DNA of 64,000 nucleotides from IMG/VR virus record IMGVR_UViG_3300047673_000158, positions 19,412 to 83,411 of that record, one strand, 5' to 3'. Made by a program: the position numbers and the translations under genes. This DNA is from a virus. A model generated the notes under the pieces. That model was given only the letters and a program-made list of their open reading frames with translations. It made no database searches and was not told the DNA's origin. This document shows, in pieces, positions 4,952-55,757 of the stretch. How positions within the stretch are numbered: the stretch's first letter is position 1; each line of letters starts with the position of its first letter.

Positions 4952-4980
4952 TTGCTTACTTTGATGTACTTGTGGATAAT
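4952..4980 (+). promoter_or_regulatory. Sigma70-like promoter; DnaA box TGTGGATAA (4971-4979) overlaps the -10
   Basis: TTGCTT-17-GATAAT; copy B has TTGCTT-17-GACAAT without the box. Confidence 0.6.
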
Positions 4981-8095: not shown

Positions 8096-8563
8096 ATGGC
8101 AGGACTGAGCATTTACGCAAAGCTGGTGGCAGCGGCAATCGTGGCGCTGCTGATAGTCGCTTTCGGCTGGCATGAATACAAGGCCGGTGAAACGGCAGGC
8201 ATGGCAGCGGTGCAGCAGAAGTGGGACCGGCAAACGGCTGCTGTGAGCCAGGCAACCACGGTGGCAGTGACGGCAGCGGCGAGCGATGCGCTGGCGAATT
8301 ACAAGGCGGCTGGTGCGAGTGCGCAGCAGGCCGACGAACACAAGGCGCAGCAGGCTGCTGTGCGGGCCGATTTCAAATCACAGGTGCAGGACTATGCGAA
8401 TCATCATGATGGGGCAAACGCCGGGCAAGACGCGACCGGGAATGCTGGCTGCGCTGCTGGGCTTGGCGCTGACGGGCTGCGCATCTGGAACAGCGCCAAT
8501 GCAGCCGCTAACGGTGGTGGTGCCGTCAAGCCATCCGACAGTGCGGCAAGCGTTGCTCAATGA
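8096..8563 (+). CDS. i-spanin (Rz-like)
   Basis: N-terminal TM, Ala-rich coiled coil, C-terminal CxxxLxADGLRIWN. Confidence 0.75.
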   Translation: MAGLSIYAKLVAAAIVALLIVAFGWHEYKAGETAGMAAVQQKWDRQTAAVSQATTVAVTAAASDALANYKAAGASAQQADEHKAQQAAVRADFKSQVQDYANHHDGANAGQDATGNAGCAAGLGADGLRIWNSANAAANGGGAVKPSDSAASVAQ

Positions 8564-8717
8564 TTGCGCGAGCGTTGCGCCTGCTGCTAGTGGTCGCCTG
8601 GTTGACCTGCTATCCAATCACGTGGACGTGGCGCTGGCATTGGCGGATTGTCGGAGAAGTAAGGCTGATCTGGCCGAAGCGCTCAAAGCGCAAAAAGGTA
8701 TTGACATTGTGCCGTGA
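8394..8717 (+). CDS. o-spanin (Rz1-like lipoprotein), overlapping the i-spanin
   Basis: Lipobox LTGC; two further Cys; overlapped architecture. Confidence 0.72.
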   Translation: MRIIMMGQTPGKTRPGMLAALLGLALTGCASGTAPMQPLTVVVPSSHPTVRQALLNDCASVAPAASGRLVDLLSNHVDVALALADCRRSKADLAEALKAQKGIDIVP

Positions 8718-8797: not shown

Positions 8798-8871
8798 TTA
8801 TCCATAGGCAGGGCAGGTTATCCACAGCAGAAGCGCACCATGGTGGTGCATTGTGGATAACCTGTGGATAA
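8798..8871. promoter_or_regulatory. Cluster of four DnaA boxes flanking an NtrC-like palindrome
   Basis: TTATCCATA 8798, TTATCCACA 8818, CGCACCA-TGG-TGGTGCA 8834-8850, TGTGGATAA 8852 and 8863. Confidence 0.75.
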
Positions 8872-8873
8872 GT

Positions 8874-8922
8874 GGGTCCTTCCGGGCGGCACTGGCATGC
8901 GGGGGCCAAGCACGCGCGGGGT
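8874..8922 (+). other. cos site (cosQ plus putative cosN), copy A
   Basis: GGGTCCT matches lambda cosQ; TGCG-GGGGCCAAGCACG-CGCGG resembles lambda cosN; upstream of terS. Confidence 0.7.
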
Positions 8923-9025
8923 TGAAATTCTCCGAGCGTTTTTCAAACTCAAACTATCACTATCTGGCATTTGTCAAGTGTTTGAGCGTTAACGATAAAA
9001 GCATTTTTTCGAGATAGTAAACGCC

Positions 9026-9538
9026 ATGGCTGAATCGGCACGGGGAACCGTCGTAAATCGCGCAGGGCTGGCCGAAATCTTCGGCGTGGCGCTAACCACT
9101 ATCGACACCTGGGTGAAGGCCGGCTGCCCCGTTATGCAACGCGGCGGCCGAGGTGTTGAATGGCGCTTCGACACCGCCGCCGTGGCCCGCTGGCGCACCG
9201 ACGACGCCGCCCAGCGCGCGAAGGGCGACGTTCCAGACGATGCCGACAAGCTGGAACTGCGCAAGCTGGCCGCCGAAACGATGGTGGCCGAATTAAAGCT
9301 GGCCACCGCGCGCGGCGAAGTTGCGCCCGTGGCAGAGTTTGAGAAGGCCACCGCACGGTTAATGGCGACGATACGGGCTAACGTGCTGAACGTCGCGCCG
9401 CGCGCCGTCCTGCGCCTTCTAGCAGAAACGGACGAAACAACGTTTAAACGGGTTTTGCGCGAGGAATTGGCGCTGGCGCTTGAGCAATCGGCAGAAGCTC
9501 CGCTGGAACTGGACGAAGACGGGGAATCGGACGAATGA
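9026..9538 (+). CDS. terS: Terminase small subunit (Nu1-like)
   Basis: VNRAGLAEIFGV...WVKAGCP winged HTH; position after cos. Confidence 0.9.
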   Translation: MAESARGTVVNRAGLAEIFGVALTTIDTWVKAGCPVMQRGGRGVEWRFDTAAVARWRTDDAAQRAKGDVPDDADKLELRKLAAETMVAELKLATARGEVAPVAEFEKATARLMATIRANVLNVAPRAVLRLLAETDETTFKRVLREELALALEQSAEAPLELDEDGESDE

Positions 9539-10116
9539 AACGCGGGGAAGCGAAATCGTTAGGGCTAACTCATTATTCGACGGGCAAGCCATGTAAGGCA
9601 GGGCATATTTCAGCGCGGCGGGTTCAAGACGGCGTTTGCTCAATGTGCGCCGTGGAAAATTCAAGGGCTTGGCGCGGAAAGTACCCTGAAAGAAAAAAGG
9701 CAGTATCGCGTGCCGAATACGATAAAAACCGAGAAAAATACTCGGCGCGGCAGCGCCAAGCAAGGGGTGTAATGAAAGAAAATATCGCGCTAAGGCAGCG
9801 CGATTATTACCTTTCAAACAAGGGAAATTTTTACTCTGCTGTGTGGAGACGGCGTGCGGCGAAACTTCGCGCAATACCAGCGTGGTATGGCGAGTTAGAT
9901 AGTCTCGTGATGATCGAAGCGGCTGATTTATGCGCTATTCGACAGCAAACAACGGGAGTTAGTTGGCATGTTGACCACATGGTGCCGCTTCAGGCCAGAA
10001 ACGCATGTGGGCTGCACTGCGCAGAAAACGTGCAAGTAATCCCGGCGAAAATGAACATCGCAAAGCGCAACCATATGCGATTGACGCAGCCGCTTGAATG
10101 GCTGAAGCACATTTGA
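9535..10116 (+). CDS. HNH homing endonuclease (copy A only)
   Basis: WHVDHMVPL...CGLHCAENVQVIPAKMNIAKRN; lower GC. Confidence 0.88.
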   Translation: MKRGEAKSLGLTHYSTGKPCKAGHISARRVQDGVCSMCAVENSRAWRGKYPERKKAVSRAEYDKNREKYSARQRQARGVMKENIALRQRDYYLSNKGNFYSAVWRRRAAKLRAIPAWYGELDSLVMIEAADLCAIRQQTTGVSWHVDHMVPLQARNACGLHCAENVQVIPAKMNIAKRNHMRLTQPLEWLKHI

Positions 10117-10129
10117 GAAAGCCACTTTC

Positions 10130-12163
10130 ATGAACCACCCATTCAGCAACCTGGATGCCGTAGTTGCAGCAGCCAGCCGCGCCGCGCAAAACCTAATTCC
10201 GCCCGCCGAAATGAAGCCCAGCGAGTGGGCGGAAAAGAATATCCGAATCCCAATCGGAAACGCAGTTCCGGGTCCAATCAATTTCGACAATGCGCCATAC
10301 CAAAGGGGCATGATTGATTGCGTAGTTGAGCCTGGCATTAAGCGCGTTACTTTTCAGACCGGCGCGCAATTAGGCAAGACCACTACACAACAATGCATTA
10401 CGGGCTACTTCATCGACCACGACCCGCGTTCGCAGATTTTCGTCATGCCAACGCAGAACGACGTGCAGACATTCCAGCAAACGAAATTGGTTCCAATGTT
10501 GGAAGCCAATCCGCGCATTACGCGAAAGCTGGCAAAGGCGCGCGGACGCGAAGGCGTCAACAATTCGAGAATGATTAGTTTTGTTGGCGGGTTCCTGATG
10601 TTTTCATGGGCAGGCAGCCCGCGCACCCTTCGCGGACGATCTGCGCCGATTACCCAAGCCGATGAAATCGACGGCATGGAAATGATTGAAGGCGAAGGCG
10701 ATCCGCTGGAACTGCTGGACCAGCGCGCGGCCACTTTCGGCGACCTGGCGATTAACACGGCATCAAGCACGCCGACAATCAAGGGAATTTCGAGAATTGA
10801 AAAGCGCTTTCTGGCGGGCGATCAACGGCGTTATTTTGTTCCGTGCCCGGATTGCGACGAGCCGCAATATTTGAAGTGGACGCAGGTTTTTTGGGACGGC
10901 CGCGACGCGCCAGAAGCCGAACAACACCCGCACACCGCGCGCTATGTGTGTGAGCATTGCGGCAGCATGTGGAACGACGGCCAGCGCGTGGCGGCGATTC
11001 GAAACGCAGAGAAAAACGGTGGCGGCTGGAAGGCGGCGAATCCGTTCAAGGGCCACGCGTCATTTCATGCGCCGGAAATGCTTTCGACGTTCCGCAAGCT
11101 GGGCGACATTGTCCAGTCGTATTTGAATAAGCTGGCCGCTGGCGATTTGCAATCTTTCGTCAACGTTTCTTTGGGCGAATGTTTCGAGGAAACCGCCGAA
11201 CAGGCCGACCCGGATTCACTCTGCGCGCGCCGGGAAGTGTACGCGGCGCAGGTGCCAATGCACGGCCTTTATCTGACGTGCGGCGTGGACATGCAAACCG
11301 ACCGGCTGGAAGTCGAAATAGTGGCCTGGGGGCTGTTCGAACAGTCATGGTCTGTCGCTTACCGCGTGCTGTACGGCGATCCGCTATCGGGCGACGTGTG
11401 GAACGACCTGGACGACCTGCTGGCCGAAGAATTCCAGCATGAAAGCGGCGCGCTGCTATCCATCCAGGCAACCACCGTGGACACGGGCGGCACGACGGGT
11501 TACACCCAGGCCGCCTATGAATACATTCGCGCCCGCCGCGCCCGAAAGATATTCGCTATCAAGGGCATTCCGGGCTGGGGTCGCGCCATTGTCGAGAAGC
11601 CGCAGCGCAAGCAATCCGGCAAACACAGCCGGAAAGTCGATTTGTACCAGGTGGGCGTGGACGAAGCGAAGCTGGTTGTTATGCGCCGACTTGCAATGAA
11701 GCGCGAAGGGCCGGGTTATTGCCACTTTCCGGCCGACGAAGACCACGGCGAAGACTATTTCAAGCAATTAACGGCTGAAAAGCTGAAAACCCGCTTCGTG
11801 CGGGGCTTCCCGGTGCGCGAGTGGCACAAGGGCGACAAGGTGCGAAACGAGGCTTTGGACTGCCGCGTGTACGCCATGGCAGCCCTAAAAATCATGAATC
11901 CATCATTGCGCCAGCTTGCAAAACGGCTGATTTTGAACCCGGAAACGCAGACATGGGCGCCCGTGGCCGACAATCCGGCCGAAATCGCGCCGATTCAGCC
12001 CGAAAAGCCACGCCCACTGCCCAAACCGACGCCGAAGCCCGTTAAGGCGGCAGAAAACCCCGCCGTGGCTAAGGAACAAGCGCCCAGCGAAACTAGGCCC
12101 ATTAAACGGGCGAAATCGCTAACCGCAGGCAGGCGCCGTGGGGGATTCGCCACCAACTGGTGA
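10130..12163 (+). CDS. terL: Terminase large subunit (GpA family)
   Basis: GAQLGKT, ADEID, SSTPT, VPCPDC, GVDMQ, NEALDC. Confidence 0.95.
   Translation: MNHPFSNLDAVVAAASRAAQNLIPPAEMKPSEWAEKNIRIPIGNAVPGPINFDNAPYQRGMIDCVVEPGIKRVTFQTGAQLGKTTTQQCITGYFIDHDPRSQIFVMPTQNDVQTFQQTKLVPMLEANPRITRKLAKARGREGVNNSRMISFVGGFLMFSWAGSPRTLRGRSAPITQADEIDGMEMIEGEGDPLELLDQRAATFGDLAINTASSTPTIKGISRIEKRFLAGDQRRYFVPCPDCDEPQYLKWTQVFWDGRDAPEAEQHPHTARYVCEHCGSMWNDGQRVAAIRNAEKNGGGWKAANPFKGHASFHAPEMLSTFRKLGDIVQSYLNKLAAGDLQSFVNVSLGECFEETAEQADPDSLCARREVYAAQVPMHGLYLTCGVDMQTDRLEVEIVAWGLFEQSWSVAYRVLYGDPLSGDVWNDLDDLLAEEFQHESGALLSIQATTVDTGGTTGYTQAAYEYIRARRARKIFAIKGIPGWGRAIVEKPQRKQSGKHSRKVDLYQVGVDEAKLVVMRRLAMKREGPGYCHFPADEDHGEDYFKQLTAEKLKTRFVRGFPVREWHKGDKVRNEALDCRVYAMAALKIMNPSLRQLAKRLILNPETQTWAPVADNPAEIAPIQPEKPRPLPKPTPKPVKAAENPAVAKEQAPSETRPIKRAKSLTAGRRRGGFATNW
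12054..12094 (+). promoter_or_regulatory. Late promoter motif inside the terL 3' end
   Basis: AAAACCCCGCCGTGG-N20-GAAACT. Confidence 0.65.
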
Positions 12164-30696: not shown

Positions 30697-30791
30697 TTAT
30701 CCAGATGGACGAAACGCCGACCGTTCGCCACCGATGCCGCCGCCCCGCGCGCCCCTGGATGCCAGGGCGGCGGGGTTTATCCAGATGAACG
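30697..30791. repeat. 15-bp direct repeat TTATCCAGATG(G/A)ACG bracketing a GC-rich hairpin
   Basis: Copies at 30697-30711 and 30777-30791 in the convergent intergenic gap. Confidence 0.6.
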
Positions 30792-32122: not shown

Positions 32123-32383
32123 TTACGCGAACGTGGACGGCTGCGCCACGGCGCGAGTAAGCATCATGAAGCCGATTTGCAAATGGCGCTTCCCTTCTTC
32201 TTCCCAGCCCATGGCTTCGATTACCACGGCCTGTTTTTCTTCGTCGCCACGCGCGGCCGTGTACTGCTTCGCGGTGCGCTTTTGTACGGCTTCCACCAGC
32301 CGTTTTGTTTCTTCCCCGTGCGCTTCGATGCGTGCCAGAAGTTCTTCCGTTTCCGGGCTGGTGTTTTGCGTCATTTGGTCCAT
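32123..32383 (-). CDS. Acb2-like (anti-CBASS sponge fold) protein, divergent
   Basis: RIxxxG..QY..W...GK.HLQIGFMMLTRAVAQPSTF matches the recalled Acb2 pattern [22 protein letters not shown]. Confidence 0.72.
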   Translation of the reverse strand: MDQMTQNTSPETEELLARIEAHGEETKRLVEAVQKRTAKQYTAARGDEEKQAVVIEAMGWEEEGKRHLQIGFMMLTRAVAQPSTFA

Positions 32384-45144: not shown

Positions 45145-45402
45145 ATGAACGAACAGGACGCAATCGAGTTCGCCAGCATAAACGGCGTGACTGTGACAAC
45201 AGATAAGGTTGACCGCTTCAAGGTTGGCGGAAAGTGGAGCCGCCGAATTTCTTTCCGCGTTGGGAAGTTCATCGTTATTCGATTTGGCGATGAAACCGCA
45301 TGGAGGATAGCGGGAGTTAGCCCGCGTCCGTTCAGGCGCGGCGAAGCAATCGAACGCTGCGTGAATCTAACTATCGAGCAAATTCAGATGGAGGATGAAT
45401 GA
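45145..45402 (+). CDS. Hypothetical early protein (copy B)
   Basis: Follows promoter and operator 45082-45117. Confidence 0.6.
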   Translation: MNEQDAIEFASINGVTVTTDKVDRFKVGGKWSRRISFRVGKFIVIRFGDETAWRIAGVSPRPFRRGEAIERCVNLTIEQIQMEDE

Positions 45403-45731
45403 GTCAGCAAACCCTGGCGGAACTGATCGCGGCGCGTGACGAGCTAACGCGGCGCATTGAGGATATGCAGGCGGCAACCAGGGCAGAAGCGGTGCGGACG
45501 GTGGCGGCGCTGATCGCTGAACACGACATGACGGCGCACGAAGTGGGGCTGGTGCGAACCCAGCAATTGAAGCCGGGCCGCAAGGGTGCGCCGACGTTCA
45601 AGCAGAAGGCAAAGCGACCGCCGAACCCGCCGAAGTATCGAGACCCGAAAACGGGCGCGACGTGGACGGGGAACGGCAAGGCACCTGCCTGGCTGAACGG
45701 GCAGGATAGGGACGAGTTTTTAATCTACTGA
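45399..45731 (+). CDS. hns: H-NS family protein (copy B)
   Basis: Ortholog of 1661-1993. Confidence 0.85.
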   Translation: MSQQTLAELIAARDELTRRIEDMQAATRAEAVRTVAALIAEHDMTAHEVGLVRTQQLKPGRKGAPTFKQKAKRPPNPPKYRDPKTGATWTGNGKAPAWLNGQDRDEFLIY

Positions 45732-52616: not shown

Positions 52617-52746
52617 TGCCAAATGAAAACGGCCAGCGCGATGGCTGGCCGTGATGGAAGACGTTGCAGTGTCCGCCGACTTACTTGCTTCTCAAGAGCG
52701 GCGCAAATCTACAACGGAATCTGTATCGTGTCAAGTGCTAGCATAG

Positions 52747-52820
52747 TTATCCACAGGGCTATGCAGTTATCCACAGGCTGATGCACCATGATGGTGCGAT
52801 TGTGGATAACCTGTGGATAA
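52747..52820. promoter_or_regulatory. Four perfect DnaA boxes flanking an NtrC-like palindrome (copy B)
   Basis: TTATCCACA 52747 and 52767; TGCACCA-TGA-TGGTGCG 52782-52798; TGTGGATAA 52801 and 52812. Confidence 0.78.
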
Positions 52821-52823
52821 TTA

Positions 52824-52870
52824 GGGTCCTTCCTGACGGGGCCAGGGTGCGGGGTCCAAAGCACCGCGTA
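52824..52870 (+). other. cos site (copy B)
   Basis: cosQ GGGTCCT, then TGCG-GGGTCCAAAGCAC-CGCG at the same spacing as copy A. Confidence 0.7.
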
Positions 52871-52976
52871 AATAAAAATCTGAGAGGGTTTTTTTAAACG
52901 CGGACTACGACTAGTGAGCGCTTGTCAAGTGCTTTGATTGTTAACGAAAAACGAAATCTGACAAAGTAGTTTACCT

Positions 52977-53510
52977 ATGGCAACAGGCGTGCGGGGAATG
53001 CTCGTAAATCGGGCGAAGCTGGCCGAAGTCTTCGACGTGGCTCTGACGACCATCGACACCTGGGTGAAGAAAGGCTGTCCCGTCCACCAGCGTGGCGCGA
53101 AGGGGATCGAGTGGCAGTTCAACACCGCCGACGTGGCCCGGTGGCGCGAAGACGAACGCGCCAAACAGGCCGCTGGCACCGCGCCCGACGATATGGACAA
53201 GCTGGACCTACGGAAGGCGCAGGCCGACACCCTGCGCGCCGAACTGGAACTAGCGAAGGCCCGCGACGAAGTGGCGCCCGTGGCCGAATTCGAGAAGGCC
53301 ACCAGCCGCATGCTGGCCACGATCCGCACCAACGCCCTGAACATTCCCGCACGCGCCGCACTCCGGCTGCTGGGCGAGACCAACGAAACAACGTTTAAAC
53401 GCATTTTGCGCGAAGAAATCACGCTGGCGCTTGAAACATCGGCCGAATCCGACGTGGCGCTGGAAGACGAAGACGAAGACGGGGAAGCGAAGAATGACCG
53501 CGAGATTTGA
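52977..53510 (+). CDS. terS: Terminase small subunit (copy B, divergent)
   Basis: VNRAKLAEVFDV...WVKKGCP. Confidence 0.9.
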   Translation: MATGVRGMLVNRAKLAEVFDVALTTIDTWVKKGCPVHQRGAKGIEWQFNTADVARWREDERAKQAAGTAPDDMDKLDLRKAQADTLRAELELAKARDEVAPVAEFEKATSRMLATIRTNALNIPARAALRLLGETNETTFKRILREEITLALETSAESDVALEDEDEDGEAKNDREI

Positions 53511-53712
53511 CCGCCTGAAGGCCACGCGCCTAGCCAACGAACTGGCCGCCGAACTGGCAAAGCTGGCCGAAGTGCCGCACAAAATCCAGAAGGGCGGCGA
53601 CGTTCTGAGCATGACGAAGTTTTGCCTTCCCGCGCTGGCTCGCTGCTTTGAACATGGCGTGTACGAAGGTTTGGAACCTGGCAACGATCTGCCCGCGTGG
53701 CTGAAAGACTGA
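53494..53712 (+). CDS. Hypothetical protein in the slot occupied by the HNH gene in copy A
   Basis: 72 aa ORF between terS and terL. Confidence 0.55.
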   Translation: MTARFDRLKATRLANELAAELAKLAEVPHKIQKGGDVLSMTKFCLPALARCFEHGVYEGLEPGNDLPAWLKD

Positions 53713-53723
53713 AAGCCACTTTC

Positions 53724-55757
53724 ATGCGCCACCTTTTCAGCAATATCCCCGCCATTCGCAAGGCGCTAAAGCGCGCTGCCCGCAACCTTGTGCCGCCCGC
53801 CGACATGCTGCCGTCCGTGTGGGCTGAAGCCAATCTGATGATTCCGGCCGGTAACGCCGTACCGGGCTTGATTCGCTTCGACAATGCGCCGTACCAGCGC
53901 GGCATGCTGGACGTGATCGTTAAGCCGGGCATTAAGCGTGTTACTTACATGACCGGCGCGCAGCTTGGAAAGACGACTATCCAGCAGGCTATCGCCGGGT
54001 TTTTTATCGACCACGACCCGCGCAGCCAGATTTTCATTCAGCCGACGCAGGGCGACGTGCAGACGTTCCAGGAAACGAAACTGCGGCCGATGCTGGACGC
54101 GAACAAAAGCATTTCGCGCAAGCTGGCGAAGTCGCGCGGGCGCGATGGCGTCAACAACAGCCGCATCATTTCGTTTATCGGCGGCTGGCTTATGTTCGGC
54201 TGGGCAGGTTCGCCACGGACCCTGCGCGGCCGTTCCGCACCTGTCACGCAGGCCGACGAAGTGGACGGCATGCTGGCCGACACGGGCGAGGGCGACCCGC
54301 TGGAACTGCTGGCGCAGCGCGCCGCGACGTTCGGGGATTTGCAGCTTAGAACCGAATCCAGCACGCCGACCATTAAGGGCGCATCGCGCATCGAAACGTC
54401 GTTCCTGATGGGCGATCAACAGCGCTATTACGTGCCGTGCCCTGACTGCGGCGAGGCGCAGTATTTGAAGTGGCCGCAAGTGATCTGGACCGGCCGCGAC
54501 AATCTGGAAGGCGAGCAAGACCCGGACAGCGCGCGATACTGCTGCGAACACTGCGGCAGCCTGTGGGACGACGGCCAGCGGGTAATGGCCATTCGCACGG
54601 CTGAAGCCAAGGGCTGGGGCTGGAAGGCTTCGAAGCCGTTCAAGGGCCACGCATCATTCCACGCACCCGAAATTCTTTCGACGTTCCGCAAGCTGCGCGA
54701 CATCGTGCAGTCCTATTTGGACAAGCTGGCGGCCGGTGATCTGCAATCGTTCGTGAACGTTTCCCTGGCTGAAACATTCGAGGAAACCGCCGAACAGGCC
54801 GACCCGGATTCACTCTACGCGCGCCGGGAAGTGTACGCGGCGCAGGTGCCAATGCACGGCCTGTATCTGACGTGCGGCGTAGACATGCAAATCGACCGCC
54901 TGGAAGTGAAAATTACGGCGTGGGGGTTGTTCGAACAGTCATGGTCTATCGCTTACCGCGTGCTGTACGGCGACCCGCTGGCGGGCGACGTGTGGAACGA
55001 TCTGGACGACTTGCTGGCGGAAACGTTCGAACATGAAAGCGGCACGCTGCTATCCATCCAGGCCACCTGCCTGGACACGGGCGGCACCACGGGTATGACG
55101 CAGGCCGCCTATGAATACATTCGCGCCCGGCGCGGCCGAAAGATATTCGCTATCAAGGGTATTCCAGGCTGGGGCCGCCAGATTGTCGAGAAGCCGCAGC
55201 GCAAGCAATCGGGCAAGCACAGCCGGAAAGTGGACCTGTACCAGGTGGGGACCGACGAAGCCAAGCTGGTGGTAATGCGCCGCCTTGCGCTGAAGCGTGA
55301 AGGGCCGGGCTATTGCCACTTTCCGGCCGACGAAGACCACGGCGAAGACTATTTCAAGCAAATAACGGCTGAAAAGCTGAAAACCCGCTTTGTACGGGGC
55401 TTTCCGGTGCGCGAGTGGCACAAGCCAGATAAGGCCAGAAACGAGGTTTTGGACTGCACTGTGTACGCCATGGCAGCCCTAAAAATCATGAATCCGAGCC
55501 TGAAACAGCTTGCAAAAAGGCTGATTTTGAACCCGGAAACGCAGACATGGGCGCCCGTGGCCGACAATCCGGCCGAAATCGCGCCGGTTCAGCCCGAAAA
55601 GCCGCGCCCGTTGCCAAAACCGACGCCGAAGCCCGCCAGGCAGCCGGAAAACCCCGCCGTGGCTAAGGAACAGGCGCCCAGCGAAACTAGGCCCATTAAA
55701 CGGGCGAAATCGCTAACCGCAGGCCGACGCCGTGGGGGATTCGCCACCAACTGGTGA
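53724..55757 (+). CDS. terL: Terminase large subunit (copy B)
   Basis: GpA motifs as in copy A. Confidence 0.95.
   Translation: MRHLFSNIPAIRKALKRAARNLVPPADMLPSVWAEANLMIPAGNAVPGLIRFDNAPYQRGMLDVIVKPGIKRVTYMTGAQLGKTTIQQAIAGFFIDHDPRSQIFIQPTQGDVQTFQETKLRPMLDANKSISRKLAKSRGRDGVNNSRIISFIGGWLMFGWAGSPRTLRGRSAPVTQADEVDGMLADTGEGDPLELLAQRAATFGDLQLRTESSTPTIKGASRIETSFLMGDQQRYYVPCPDCGEAQYLKWPQVIWTGRDNLEGEQDPDSARYCCEHCGSLWDDGQRVMAIRTAEAKGWGWKASKPFKGHASFHAPEILSTFRKLRDIVQSYLDKLAAGDLQSFVNVSLAETFEETAEQADPDSLYARREVYAAQVPMHGLYLTCGVDMQIDRLEVKITAWGLFEQSWSIAYRVLYGDPLAGDVWNDLDDLLAETFEHESGTLLSIQATCLDTGGTTGMTQAAYEYIRARRGRKIFAIKGIPGWGRQIVEKPQRKQSGKHSRKVDLYQVGTDEAKLVVMRRLALKREGPGYCHFPADEDHGEDYFKQITAEKLKTRFVRGFPVREWHKPDKARNEVLDCTVYAMAALKIMNPSLKQLAKRLILNPETQTWAPVADNPAEIAPVQPEKPRPLPKPTPKPARQPENPAVAKEQAPSETRPIKRAKSLTAGRRRGGFATNW

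Follow-up and report, generated by a model that had tools for sequence, protein, structure and literature searches.

Consensus DnaA boxes lie directly against the cosQ-like site of a lambda-type packaging region in both phage genomes represented in the 64-kb window, by which we mean the whole stretch of DNA analysed here. Boxes also adjoin cosQ in at least five further gpA-terminase lineages in reverse orientation and in two in forward orientation, with large terminase subunits (TerL) 28-55% identical to that of the focal phage. The explanation that we tentatively favour, as a serious possibility that still falls short of being probable, is that the cosQ flank serves as a docking site for host DnaA, which as a cos accessory would aid packaging arrest or shield the cut end. 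More broadly, a tightly conserved cluster at cos, matched by similar clusters in several unrelated phages, hints at an undescribed part for DnaA at the packaged end.

Results

The source record contains two related phage genomes

The window belongs to an 83,411-bp viral record in which, by self-comparison, positions 1-39836 align to 43338-83411 with about 90% identity. The record is a head-to-tail pseudo-dimer comprising nearly two related phage genomes of about 43.5-43.9 kb, with no host flank, and may be a genuine concatemer or the product of assembling two strains that occurred together. The earlier note had described two copies, A and B, of the module. Both are real, but "copy B" is the cos region of a second phage genome, about 90% identical to the first. 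As the two copies are relatives in either case, comparing A with B measures constraint.

Pfam and PHROG annotation identifies a myovirus with tail sheath and tape measure genes, encoding a lambda-type portal, a Nu1-family small terminase subunit (TerS) and a gpA-family TerL. The phage also encodes an SSB, a RecE-like exonuclease, a helicase, a ParB-like protein, a methyltransferase, H-NS-like proteins, a late activator, holins, an endolysin and Rz/Rz1. The primase-helicase previously attributed to it was found as a VapE-type gene, whereas the separate iteron origin proposed alongside was not recovered, TRF and direct-repeat scans giving no array of three or more copies. No tyrosine integrase or serine recombinase was found across the whole record (1.9 genome units). 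The GC skew tracks gene orientation and transcription and shows no inflection at cos, which is a weak test for a phage. The hosts named in the genome records of relatives are Burkholderiaceae (Caballeronia, Paraburkholderia and Burkholderia alba), and one relative occupies the entire 42.4-kb contig of a Caballeronia isolate. The phage studied here is a soil phage.

Both cos regions carry a DnaA-box and palindrome module

As first described from the sequence, two forward boxes, a palindrome and two reverse boxes are present in both modules (Table 1), and the start-to-start box spacings of 20/34/11 bp are identical in A and B. Measured against the R-type 9-mer consensus TTATCCACA, seven of the eight module boxes are perfect and one carries a single mismatch. 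Seven of the eight perfect 9-mers of the 64-kb window fall inside the two 74-bp modules. At one mismatch or fewer, the window holds 21 matches against 6.5 ± 2.3 expected, a number reached in none of 100 shuffles. The consensus match and the clustering are far above chance. The motif GCACCA-N3-TGGTGC is found in the window only at the two module sites (0.29 expected; two or more in 4 of 100 shuffles).

Table 1. Coordinates, in the window, of the features of the two cos regions
Feature	Copy	Position	Strand	Evidence or remark
Rz1/LysC-like lysis ORF, ends 80 bp before box 1	A	8286..8717	+	weak Pfam LysC match, below family cut-off
DnaA box 1, TTATCCAtA, one mismatch	A	8798..8806	+	perfect TTATCCACA in 5 other distinct relatives
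DnaA box 2, TTATCCACA	A	8818..8826	+	9-mer scan and relatives' alignment
Palindrome GCACCA-TGG-TGGTGC, GCACCATGGTGGTGC	A	8835..8849	.	arms invariant, centre variable, 6 distinct relatives
DnaA box 3 (TGTGGATAA on + strand)	A	8852..8860	-	scan and alignment
DnaA box 4	A	8863..8871	-	2-bp gap to box 3, 11-bp period
cosQ-like GGGTCCT	A	8874..8880	+	same 7-mer in lambda; invariant GGGTCCTTCC in relatives
Predicted 13-nt cohesive end (cosN)	A	8902..8914	+	homology to PPpW-3
AT-richer cosB-like interval, short direct repeats (CAAACT/ACTATCACTATC type)	A	8915..9025	+	sequence, alignment
terS, Nu1 family	A	9026..9538	+	Pfam Phage_Nu1 2.5e-12
terL, gpA family	A	10130..12163	+	Pfam GpA_ATPase 1.3e-74, GpA_nuclease 4.5e-88
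DnaA box 1, perfect	B	52747..52755	+	9-mer scan
DnaA box 2, perfect	B	52767..52775	+	9-mer scan
Palindrome GCACCA-TGA-TGGTGC, GCACCATGATGGTGC	B	52783..52797	.	motif scan
DnaA box 3, perfect	B	52801..52809	-	9-mer scan
DnaA box 4, perfect	B	52812..52820	-	9-mer scan
cosQ-like GGGTCCT	B	52824..52830	+	scan; relatives
Predicted 13-nt cohesive end (cosN)	B	52852..52864	+	homology to PPpW-3
terS, Nu1 family	B	52977..53510	+	Pfam Phage_Nu1 4.2e-9; PHROG terminase small subunit
terL, gpA family	B	53697..55757	+	Pfam

Relative to the boxes, the palindrome of one copy is displaced by 1 bp from that of the other (flanks of 8 + 2 nt in A against 7 + 3 nt in B), although the box-to-box distances are the same in both. 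In the full module the opposed boxes are 25 bp apart. As a single strand, the module of the two copies folds at -37 and -38 kcal/mol (z about -3.7), and a long hairpin is possible. One further perfect box stands alone at 4971, upstream of the late-activator region; it is not conserved in copy B and was set aside. The late-promoter motif TTGTCAAGTG shows no enrichment in the window (42 matches against 43.5 expected).

The module adjoins cosQ near the predicted right end of virion DNA

GGGTCCT is separated from the last box by 2 bp in A and 3 bp in B. The module stops about 30 nt short of the predicted nick, and 28 nt lie between the start of the heptamer and the predicted cohesive end; in the lambda record the heptamer starts 30 nt from the right end and stops 23 nt before it. 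In the accessible part of PMC4669245, cosQ is described as a highly conserved 7-bp site required for termination. Pseudomonas phage PPpW-3 aligns to the cos stretch at the very end of its own record, which ends with GGGGCATAGACTC and opens with the identical 13-mer. From the presence of this 13-mer at both PPpW-3 ends we predict the cohesive ends at the two places listed in Table 1, and the assignment of cosQ and of the predicted cosN is supported by this homology. For the physical ends, the assembled contigs of G004 and G012, which stop shortly after GGGTCCT, were drawn on as well. The view that the module is linked to the packaging site is supported, and its proposed placement at the extreme right end of virion DNA agrees both with the PPpW-3 ends and with a contig from another lineage (G004, described below). 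On these grounds the distance of the module from the predicted right end would be 31-104 nt.

Between the last lysis gene and cos, the space is taken up by the module; the Rz1/LysC-like ORF overlaps an ORF with a PHROG Rz-like spanin match. By Pfam, genes for a Nu1-type TerS and a gpA-type TerL lie directly downstream of cos in both copies.

A cluster of four consensus boxes that includes a pair separated by 2 bp, as is typical of oligomerising arrays, could also be a replication element, that is, a DnaA-dependent origin or a DnaB-loading site, perhaps for a plasmid-like state, which would be contiguous with the AT-richer cosB only once the cohesive ends join. Phage contigs commonly contain tandem boxes (at least 122 loci), in many cases next to iteron-like repeats, and no origin was identified elsewhere by the skew, TRF and direct-repeat scans. 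The encoded ParB-like gene, the lack of an integrase or serine recombinase in 1.9 genome units and the relative that fills its whole 42.4-kb Caballeronia contig are also in line with such a state. Yet no AT-rich unwinding element or trio-like repeats adjoin the boxes, which are followed by about 50 bp of GC-rich cosQ-cosN sequence. The nearest AT-richer stretch is about 45 bp away, beyond cosN, and the other flank is coding, with the relatives' coding sequence starting about 20 bp to the left of the module. The skew does not inflect at cos, and the phage has a primase-helicase, a helicase and an SSB of its own. An origin also leaves unexplained the adjacency to cosQ across lineages and the single-box versions presented below, and we regard it as quite unlikely.

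Boxes and palindrome arms are conserved within the focal family

A TerL search of viral contigs gave 35 loci. Perfect boxes occur upstream of terL in 16 of them, all 16 being among the 22 with a visible GGGTCCT. The full module is found in nine loci, and a tenth is cut by the contig start. Five loci at 73% TerL identity carry a reduced module of one forward and one or two reverse boxes. The reduced modules contain no palindrome, always end 3-5 bp from cosQ and keep the cosQ-proximal reverse box. In L138 and L141 the opposed boxes are directly adjacent. In the relative from Caballeronia fortuita LMG 29320, forward boxes occur together with a degenerate palindrome, and the elements are ordered differently. 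Relatives at 67% TerL identity or less mostly carry no boxes. Boxes at cos are absent in Burkholderia phage Mica, Pseudomonas phages Persinger and PPpW-3, Exiguobacterium phage 137 and Paenibacillus phage Lily, and no cultured phage with the module was present among the named phages compared.

Variation was counted by column over six distinct, aligned full-module sequences. Only 1 of 36 box columns and none of the 12 columns of the palindrome arms vary, against 9/12 in the spacer between boxes 1 and 2, 7/8 between box 2 and the palindrome, 3/3 between the palindrome and box 3, and 21/25 in the upstream flank. These counts bear out the proposal that diverged spacers and flanks around constant boxes point to selection, which for the boxes is purifying. 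In one sequence (L124) box 2 is shifted by 1 bp (21/33/11), yet in all six sequences boxes 1 and 3 lie at the same distance of 54 bp from each other. Judged from this alignment, the boxes and the palindrome arms are the selected parts of the module, and the overall geometry is held. Within the focal family there are two TerS types, which co-vary with two types of cosB repeat and not with the boxes, these being identical throughout.

The reduced versions (forward, reverse, reverse) resemble the DARS core with its three boxes, two of them opposed, as far as the accessible text of PMC6868365 describes it. This brings up the idea that boxes on replicating phage DNA manipulate the DnaA pool of the host, titrating DnaA in a datA-like manner or recycling it in a DARS-like manner, and so stop or drive host initiation. 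High-affinity consensus boxes at high copy number would be expected to titrate DnaA. In the same partial source, the opposed DARS boxes are 5 bp apart, whereas here they are 25 bp apart, or adjacent in L138 and L141. Lineages with a single box would titrate little, and the position and orientation of the boxes relative to cosQ would be unexplained. We consider a role in the DnaA pool highly improbable.

The palindrome is a separate and optional element

The NtrC consensus is TGCACCA-N3-TGGTGCA. The inner 12 of its 14 positions match the palindrome and are invariant, while in each copy just one of the two sides has the outer T/A. No sigma-54 promoter (GG-N10-GC) was found within about 250 bp, the best matches reaching 6/12 in A and 8/12 in B. 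The exact palindrome occurs 0, 2 and 0 times in three Burkholderiaceae genomes, and neither site is informative, one being inside a tRNA-synthetase gene and the other beside ORFs without a Pfam match. It is also present in Persinger, about 60 bp upstream of cosQ and straddling the stop codon of the Rz gene, without any DnaA box. Mica has a half-like form, and PPpW-3 has none, though its TerS N-terminus is almost identical to that of Persinger.

With an empty sigma-54 scan and uninformative host-genome counts, the NtrC reading found no support and was set aside. The proposed link to nitrogen status is likewise unsupported, the site being single, occurring without boxes in Persinger and missing from the reduced modules. 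TerS was likewise discarded as the binder of the palindrome because TerS N-termini are alike with and without it (Persinger and PPpW-3; L146 and L148). The palindrome is thus a separate, optional element of the cos neighbourhood that is not tied to TerS. It is an add-on, restricted to the closest relatives and some relatives that have no boxes. It probably binds some dimeric factor, for which NtrC is a possible but unsupported candidate.

With the lysis genes on one side and terS on the other, and on the transcribed strand, the module might control the terminase operon. In this reading, transcription into terS would be repressed, blocked or activated by DnaA, alone or together with NtrC at the palindrome, and late expression would be tied to host replication or to nitrogen state. 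The match of the inner 12 palindrome positions to the NtrC consensus would fit, as would two tandem sigma-54-like 17-mers (TGGCAC-N5-TTGC) just upstream of the box in an unrelated lineage (L179), and the orientation bias of the boxes reported below could relate to transcription and not to cosQ. The missing sigma-54 promoter speaks against such control, as does the sigma-70 scan, in which no promoter towards terS appeared in either copy; taken together, scans for sigma-70 promoters and for terminators produced no convincing candidate. Reduced modules have no palindrome, and the counts of the palindrome in the three host-family genomes lend no help. In another lineage (the G001 group), a terminator-like hairpin with a T-run, recognised by eye, stands directly upstream of the box, so that control of read-through would not be general. 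Operon control thus seems very unlikely to us.

DnaA boxes adjoin cosQ in other gpA-terminase lineages

All viral contigs were scanned for boxes within 1-12 bp of GGGTCCT, and a cos-like signature was scored by a crude definition of our own. The reverse box (TGTGGATAA) was found at 65 loci, 28 of which have the signature, and the forward box (TTATCCACA) at 116 loci, none of which has it. A control with the box read backwards gave 2 of 46. Counting distinct sequences, the figures are 15/47, 0/66 and 2/37, respectively. Reverse orientation is therefore enriched in cos-like contexts, on hits that are not phylogenetically independent (hence the 15 of 47 after dereplication). Of the 116 forward-box matches, 51 are at spacing 1, and all but a few of these belong to one conserved gene junction, with an ATG following, in one phage family and were rejected as cos sites. 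A few spacing-1 forward matches lie outside that junction, for example in L254 and L288.

Among individual lineages, a locus from a Lysobacter MAG (L163), whose TerL is 55% identical to that of the focal phage, carries one reverse box, 6 bp upstream of GGGTCCTTCC. In G001, G002 and G003 a gpA TerL is encoded 0.8-0.9 kb downstream of the box and GGGTCCT; the G001 group, whose nearest named TerL relatives are phages of Firmicutes, has a second box between cosQ and cosN. The G004 contig ends 40 nt after GGGTCCT, carries six reverse boxes in its last ~190 nt and has terL at its opposite end, and the two ends share an 11-mer with one mismatch; it looks like a genome opened at cos. The TerL of G001-G004 are 28-36% identical to that of the focal phage. 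Forward boxes accompany a gpA TerL about 39-40% identical to it in G006 and G010. Three candidates without a gpA TerL (G011, G013 and G014) were rejected as cos lineages, and G012 likewise shows none on a contig that ends 33 nt after GGGTCCT. G005 is a 4.5-kb fragment, and no relative of L179 or L174 was found in the phage collection. The gap between the proximal box and cosQ is 2-10 bp between lineages and 2-3 bp within the family.

These lineages bear on whether DnaA is the binder at all. The sites could instead serve a phage protein (TerS or another), or form a DNA cruciform or an RNA hairpin: the module folds well, and lambda TerS binds repeated sites near cosN. The single-box lineages, which have no inverted repeat, show that it is the box that recurs and not a hairpin. 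Moreover, the 9-mer accompanies at least three unrelated TerS HTH types, which makes a universal host protein the simpler binder, and TerS N-termini are near-identical in Persinger, which has the palindrome, and PPpW-3, which has none (likewise in L146 and L148). A Pfam search of 144 early-region ORFs retrieved no DnaA-C or Fis/NtrC-type HTH. We give this reading very little chance.

The contig ends are also pertinent to a role in DNA entry. In lambda, packaging finishes with the cosQ end, which is then the first to enter the cell, and DnaA is largely membrane-associated. By analogy, DnaA could tether or protect the first ~100 bp entering until the other cohesive end arrives, speeding circularisation. 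The 31-104 nt that would separate the module from the right end and the six boxes at the G004 contig end would suit such a device, and a need for proximity to the end would explain both the adjacency to cosQ and the 2-10 bp gap. In T5-like phages, conserved paired DnaA boxes, set in inverted repeats within the terminal repeat that is injected first, have been proposed as membrane-DnaA sites (bioRxiv 10.1101/866236, from the accessible part of the preprint). The T5 idea is itself a hypothesis, though, the entry order is drawn by analogy with lambda, and a passive tether has no obvious need for an orientation bias. We consider a role at the leading end unlikely.

Discussion

Boxes that recur against cosQ, and do so mostly in one orientation, point to a function in cos processing or at the DNA end. 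Readings of the module as an origin or as a datA-like sink leave this adjacency in a preferred orientation unexplained. We therefore lean, with some reserve, towards the module being an array of predicted high-affinity host DnaA sites that would have become an accessory of a lambda-type cosQ flank. Bound DnaA would act as a roadblock or an architectural cofactor on the side of cos reached first by the translocating terminase, and would aid motor arrest and cutting at the downstream cos, much as IHF does at lambda cosB. Another effect of bound DnaA could be to shield the cosQ-bearing end. The variable gap of 2-10 bp disfavours a rigid protein-protein contact and fits a roadblock or a role that only requires closeness to the end. 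Portal mutations that suppress cosQ defects have reportedly been explained by slower translocation. In lambda, according to the accessible text of PMC4856287, both the arrest of translocation at the downstream cos and bottom-strand nicking require cosQ, and the cosQ-bearing end is nuclease-exposed after cos cleavage.

Of the earlier suggestion of a device tying cos cleavage or terminase expression to host replication and nitrogen status, the link to the packaging site is supported across lineages, while the nitrogen part is unsupported. Against a cos-accessory role, G006 and G010 have forward boxes in gpA TerL lineages. Close functional relatives without boxes (PPpW-3, Persinger, Mica, L142-L154 and L161), together with box-less lambda, imply that any role of the boxes is dispensable or replaceable. 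The adjacency could in part reflect simple packing, the gap before cos being one of the few non-coding slots, and several of the readings discussed here could hold together. A wider version, in which host DnaA would be a general cofactor of lambda-type (gpA) terminases, in a fixed orientation, aiding the motor stop or terminal cut or capping the end, strikes us as rather unlikely. If true, packaging in phages of Proteobacteria and Firmicutes would be coupled to the state of the host initiator.

How cos phages stop the packaging motor at the next cos is still open, and the role of lambda cosQ is debated (PMC4856287, in the part accessible). A repeatedly acquired docking site for a host protein at cosQ would give a handle on termination or on protection of the cosQ end, and DnaA would, if the reading is true, join the short list of host factors at packaging sites. 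The combined signature of box and cosQ also helps to locate cos sites and true genome ends in metagenomic phage contigs. In the literature searched, no description was found of DnaA boxes at cos sites, cohesive ends, terminase or packaging sites; an older report is possible. What is new here is the recurrence of consensus DnaA boxes against cosQ across gpA-terminase lineages, the sole near parallel found being the T5 preprint, as far as its accessible part goes.

Comparison with known systems

The module resembles several known arrangements in its parts. It shares with NtrC activating sites of the glnAp2 type the inner 12 positions of the consensus, and differs from them in being a single site with no nearby sigma-54 promoter and with one-sided outer positions. 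Its consensus R-type boxes are those of oriC, plasmid and phage origins, and the 9 + 2 bp period of the reverse pair is common in phage contigs. Unlike origins of the oriC type, it has no adjacent unwinding element, iterons or skew signal, and boxes R1 and R4 of Escherichia coli oriC presumably face the opposite way to its two box pairs.

As a small cluster of boxes in mixed orientation, it is also comparable to DARS1, DARS2 and datA. In DARS2, boxes are likewise combined with sites for other DNA-bending proteins, as given in the accessible part of PMC6868365. In the DARS core as described there, boxes I and II are opposed with a 5-bp gap and boxes II and III point in the same direction, an arrangement that the module does not match. 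The DARS and datA elements further differ in being chromosomal and without a link to a DNA end.

Lambda cos offers the closest architecture, with GGGTCCT about 30 nt upstream of the nick, an AT-richer repeat region between cosN and terS, and Nu1/gpA-family terminase genes following. It also sets the precedent of a host DNA-binding protein, IHF, as a cos cofactor. The two differ in that the lambda IHF sites (I1, I2) are on the cosB side whereas the DnaA boxes described here are on the cosQ side, and in that no DnaA box lies upstream of lambda cosQ.

Finally, on the accessible part of the preprint, the injection-stop (iss) region of T5 has eight boxes, in pairs 3 bp apart and kilobases from the end, where the module has 11- and 2-bp gaps. 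T5 is a terminal-repeat phage without cos, its iss has no sequence homology to the module, and the role proposed there is hypothetical. Common to both, within the same part of that source, are conserved clusters of box pairs arranged as inverted repeats on either side of a spacer; the region that holds them is terminal, non-coding and distinct from the origin. T5-like inverted pairs around a spacer are present in the module, whose placement at the first-entering end is drawn from the analogy with lambda, and the module would be an independent parallel to the T5 idea of DnaA boxes near a genome end.

Two joined phage genomes

The record consists of two phage genomes joined head-to-tail, with record positions 1-39836 and 43338-83411 being about 90% identical. 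This arrangement corresponds either to a real heteroconcatemer or to two strains that were assembled together. The record holds no host flank, and neither an integrase nor a serine recombinase was found in it; the phage could be either virulent or temperate without integration. Both genomes encode H-NS-like proteins, and one small ORF gives a weak match to the Acb2/Tad1-hairpin family (E 3e-4, below the family cut-off).

Between terS and terL, copy A alone carries an endonuclease VII/HNH-like ORF, the corresponding interval of copy B being much shorter. The ORF has segments that match unrelated Ralstonia, Escherichia and Xanthomonas phages, and so looks like a mobile insertion. The GC-rich gap that extends from the last tail gene to the leftward early operon holds the one-mismatch DnaA box TTATCCAGATG(G/A)ACG twice, at a distance of 80 bp.

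Positions in the window of the features described in this section and the next
Feature	Window positions
H-NS-like ORFs and ORF with the weak Acb2/Tad1-hairpin match	1562-1993, 45399-45731, 32123-32383
Endonuclease VII/HNH-like ORF	9535-10116
TTATCCAGATG(G/A)ACG pair	30697-30711, 30777-30791
Direct repeat TGTCAAGTGCT..GTTA, copy A	8781, 8973
Direct repeat TGTCAAGTGCT..GTTA, copy B	52729-52749, 52923-52943
cosB-like repeats	8915-9025, 52865-52976

Sequences associated with cos and the DnaA boxes

The module of four DnaA boxes and a central palindrome is bracketed, together with cos, by the direct repeat TGTCAAGTGCT..GTTA, with a spacing of about 194 bp. The rest of the window shows no enrichment of this repeat, whose upstream copy is missing in several relatives.

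The Pseudomonas phage Persinger harbours the exact GCACCATGATGGTGC palindrome about 60 bp upstream of cosQ (L166, about 1091-1108), where the central TGA of the palindrome is the stop codon of Rz; no DnaA boxes stand beside it. Burkholderia phage Mica has a half-like version (L165, last ~260 nt), and the palindrome is absent from PPpW-3, a close relative.

In an unrelated gpA-terminase phage (L179, L180, L208 and L220), the DnaA box and cosQ are directly preceded by tandem 17-mers, TTGGCACGCCGCTTGCG and TTGGCATGGCGCTTGCG. Both fit the sigma-54 promoter pattern TGGCAC-N5-TTGC; they may be late promoters of this type, or they may be protein-binding repeats.

A scan of viral contigs for forward boxes close to GGGTCCT also recovered TTATCCACAGGGGTCCT(A/G)AATGGCCGA, a conserved gene junction of one phage family (L232-L347, 51 loci with spacing 1, apart from a few such as L254 and L288), which shows that a box beside GGGTCCT can also arise within coding sequence.

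Two reverse DnaA boxes accompany a cos-like site in the element L405 (G011, 8,967 bp), with an integrase on the same strand. That strand further carries genes for a late activator, a tape measure and a tail protein, as well as a 337-aa ORF of unknown family; terminase and head genes are absent from the element. L405 may represent a satellite; alternatively, it may be a defective prophage that was rearranged and retains the box-plus-cos cassette.

Finally, the cosB-like repeats are of two types, CAAACTCAAACTATCACTATC and GCGGACTACGACTAG, that pair with two TerS types. This pairing of repeat type and TerS type is much like the packaging specificities of phages lambda and 21.
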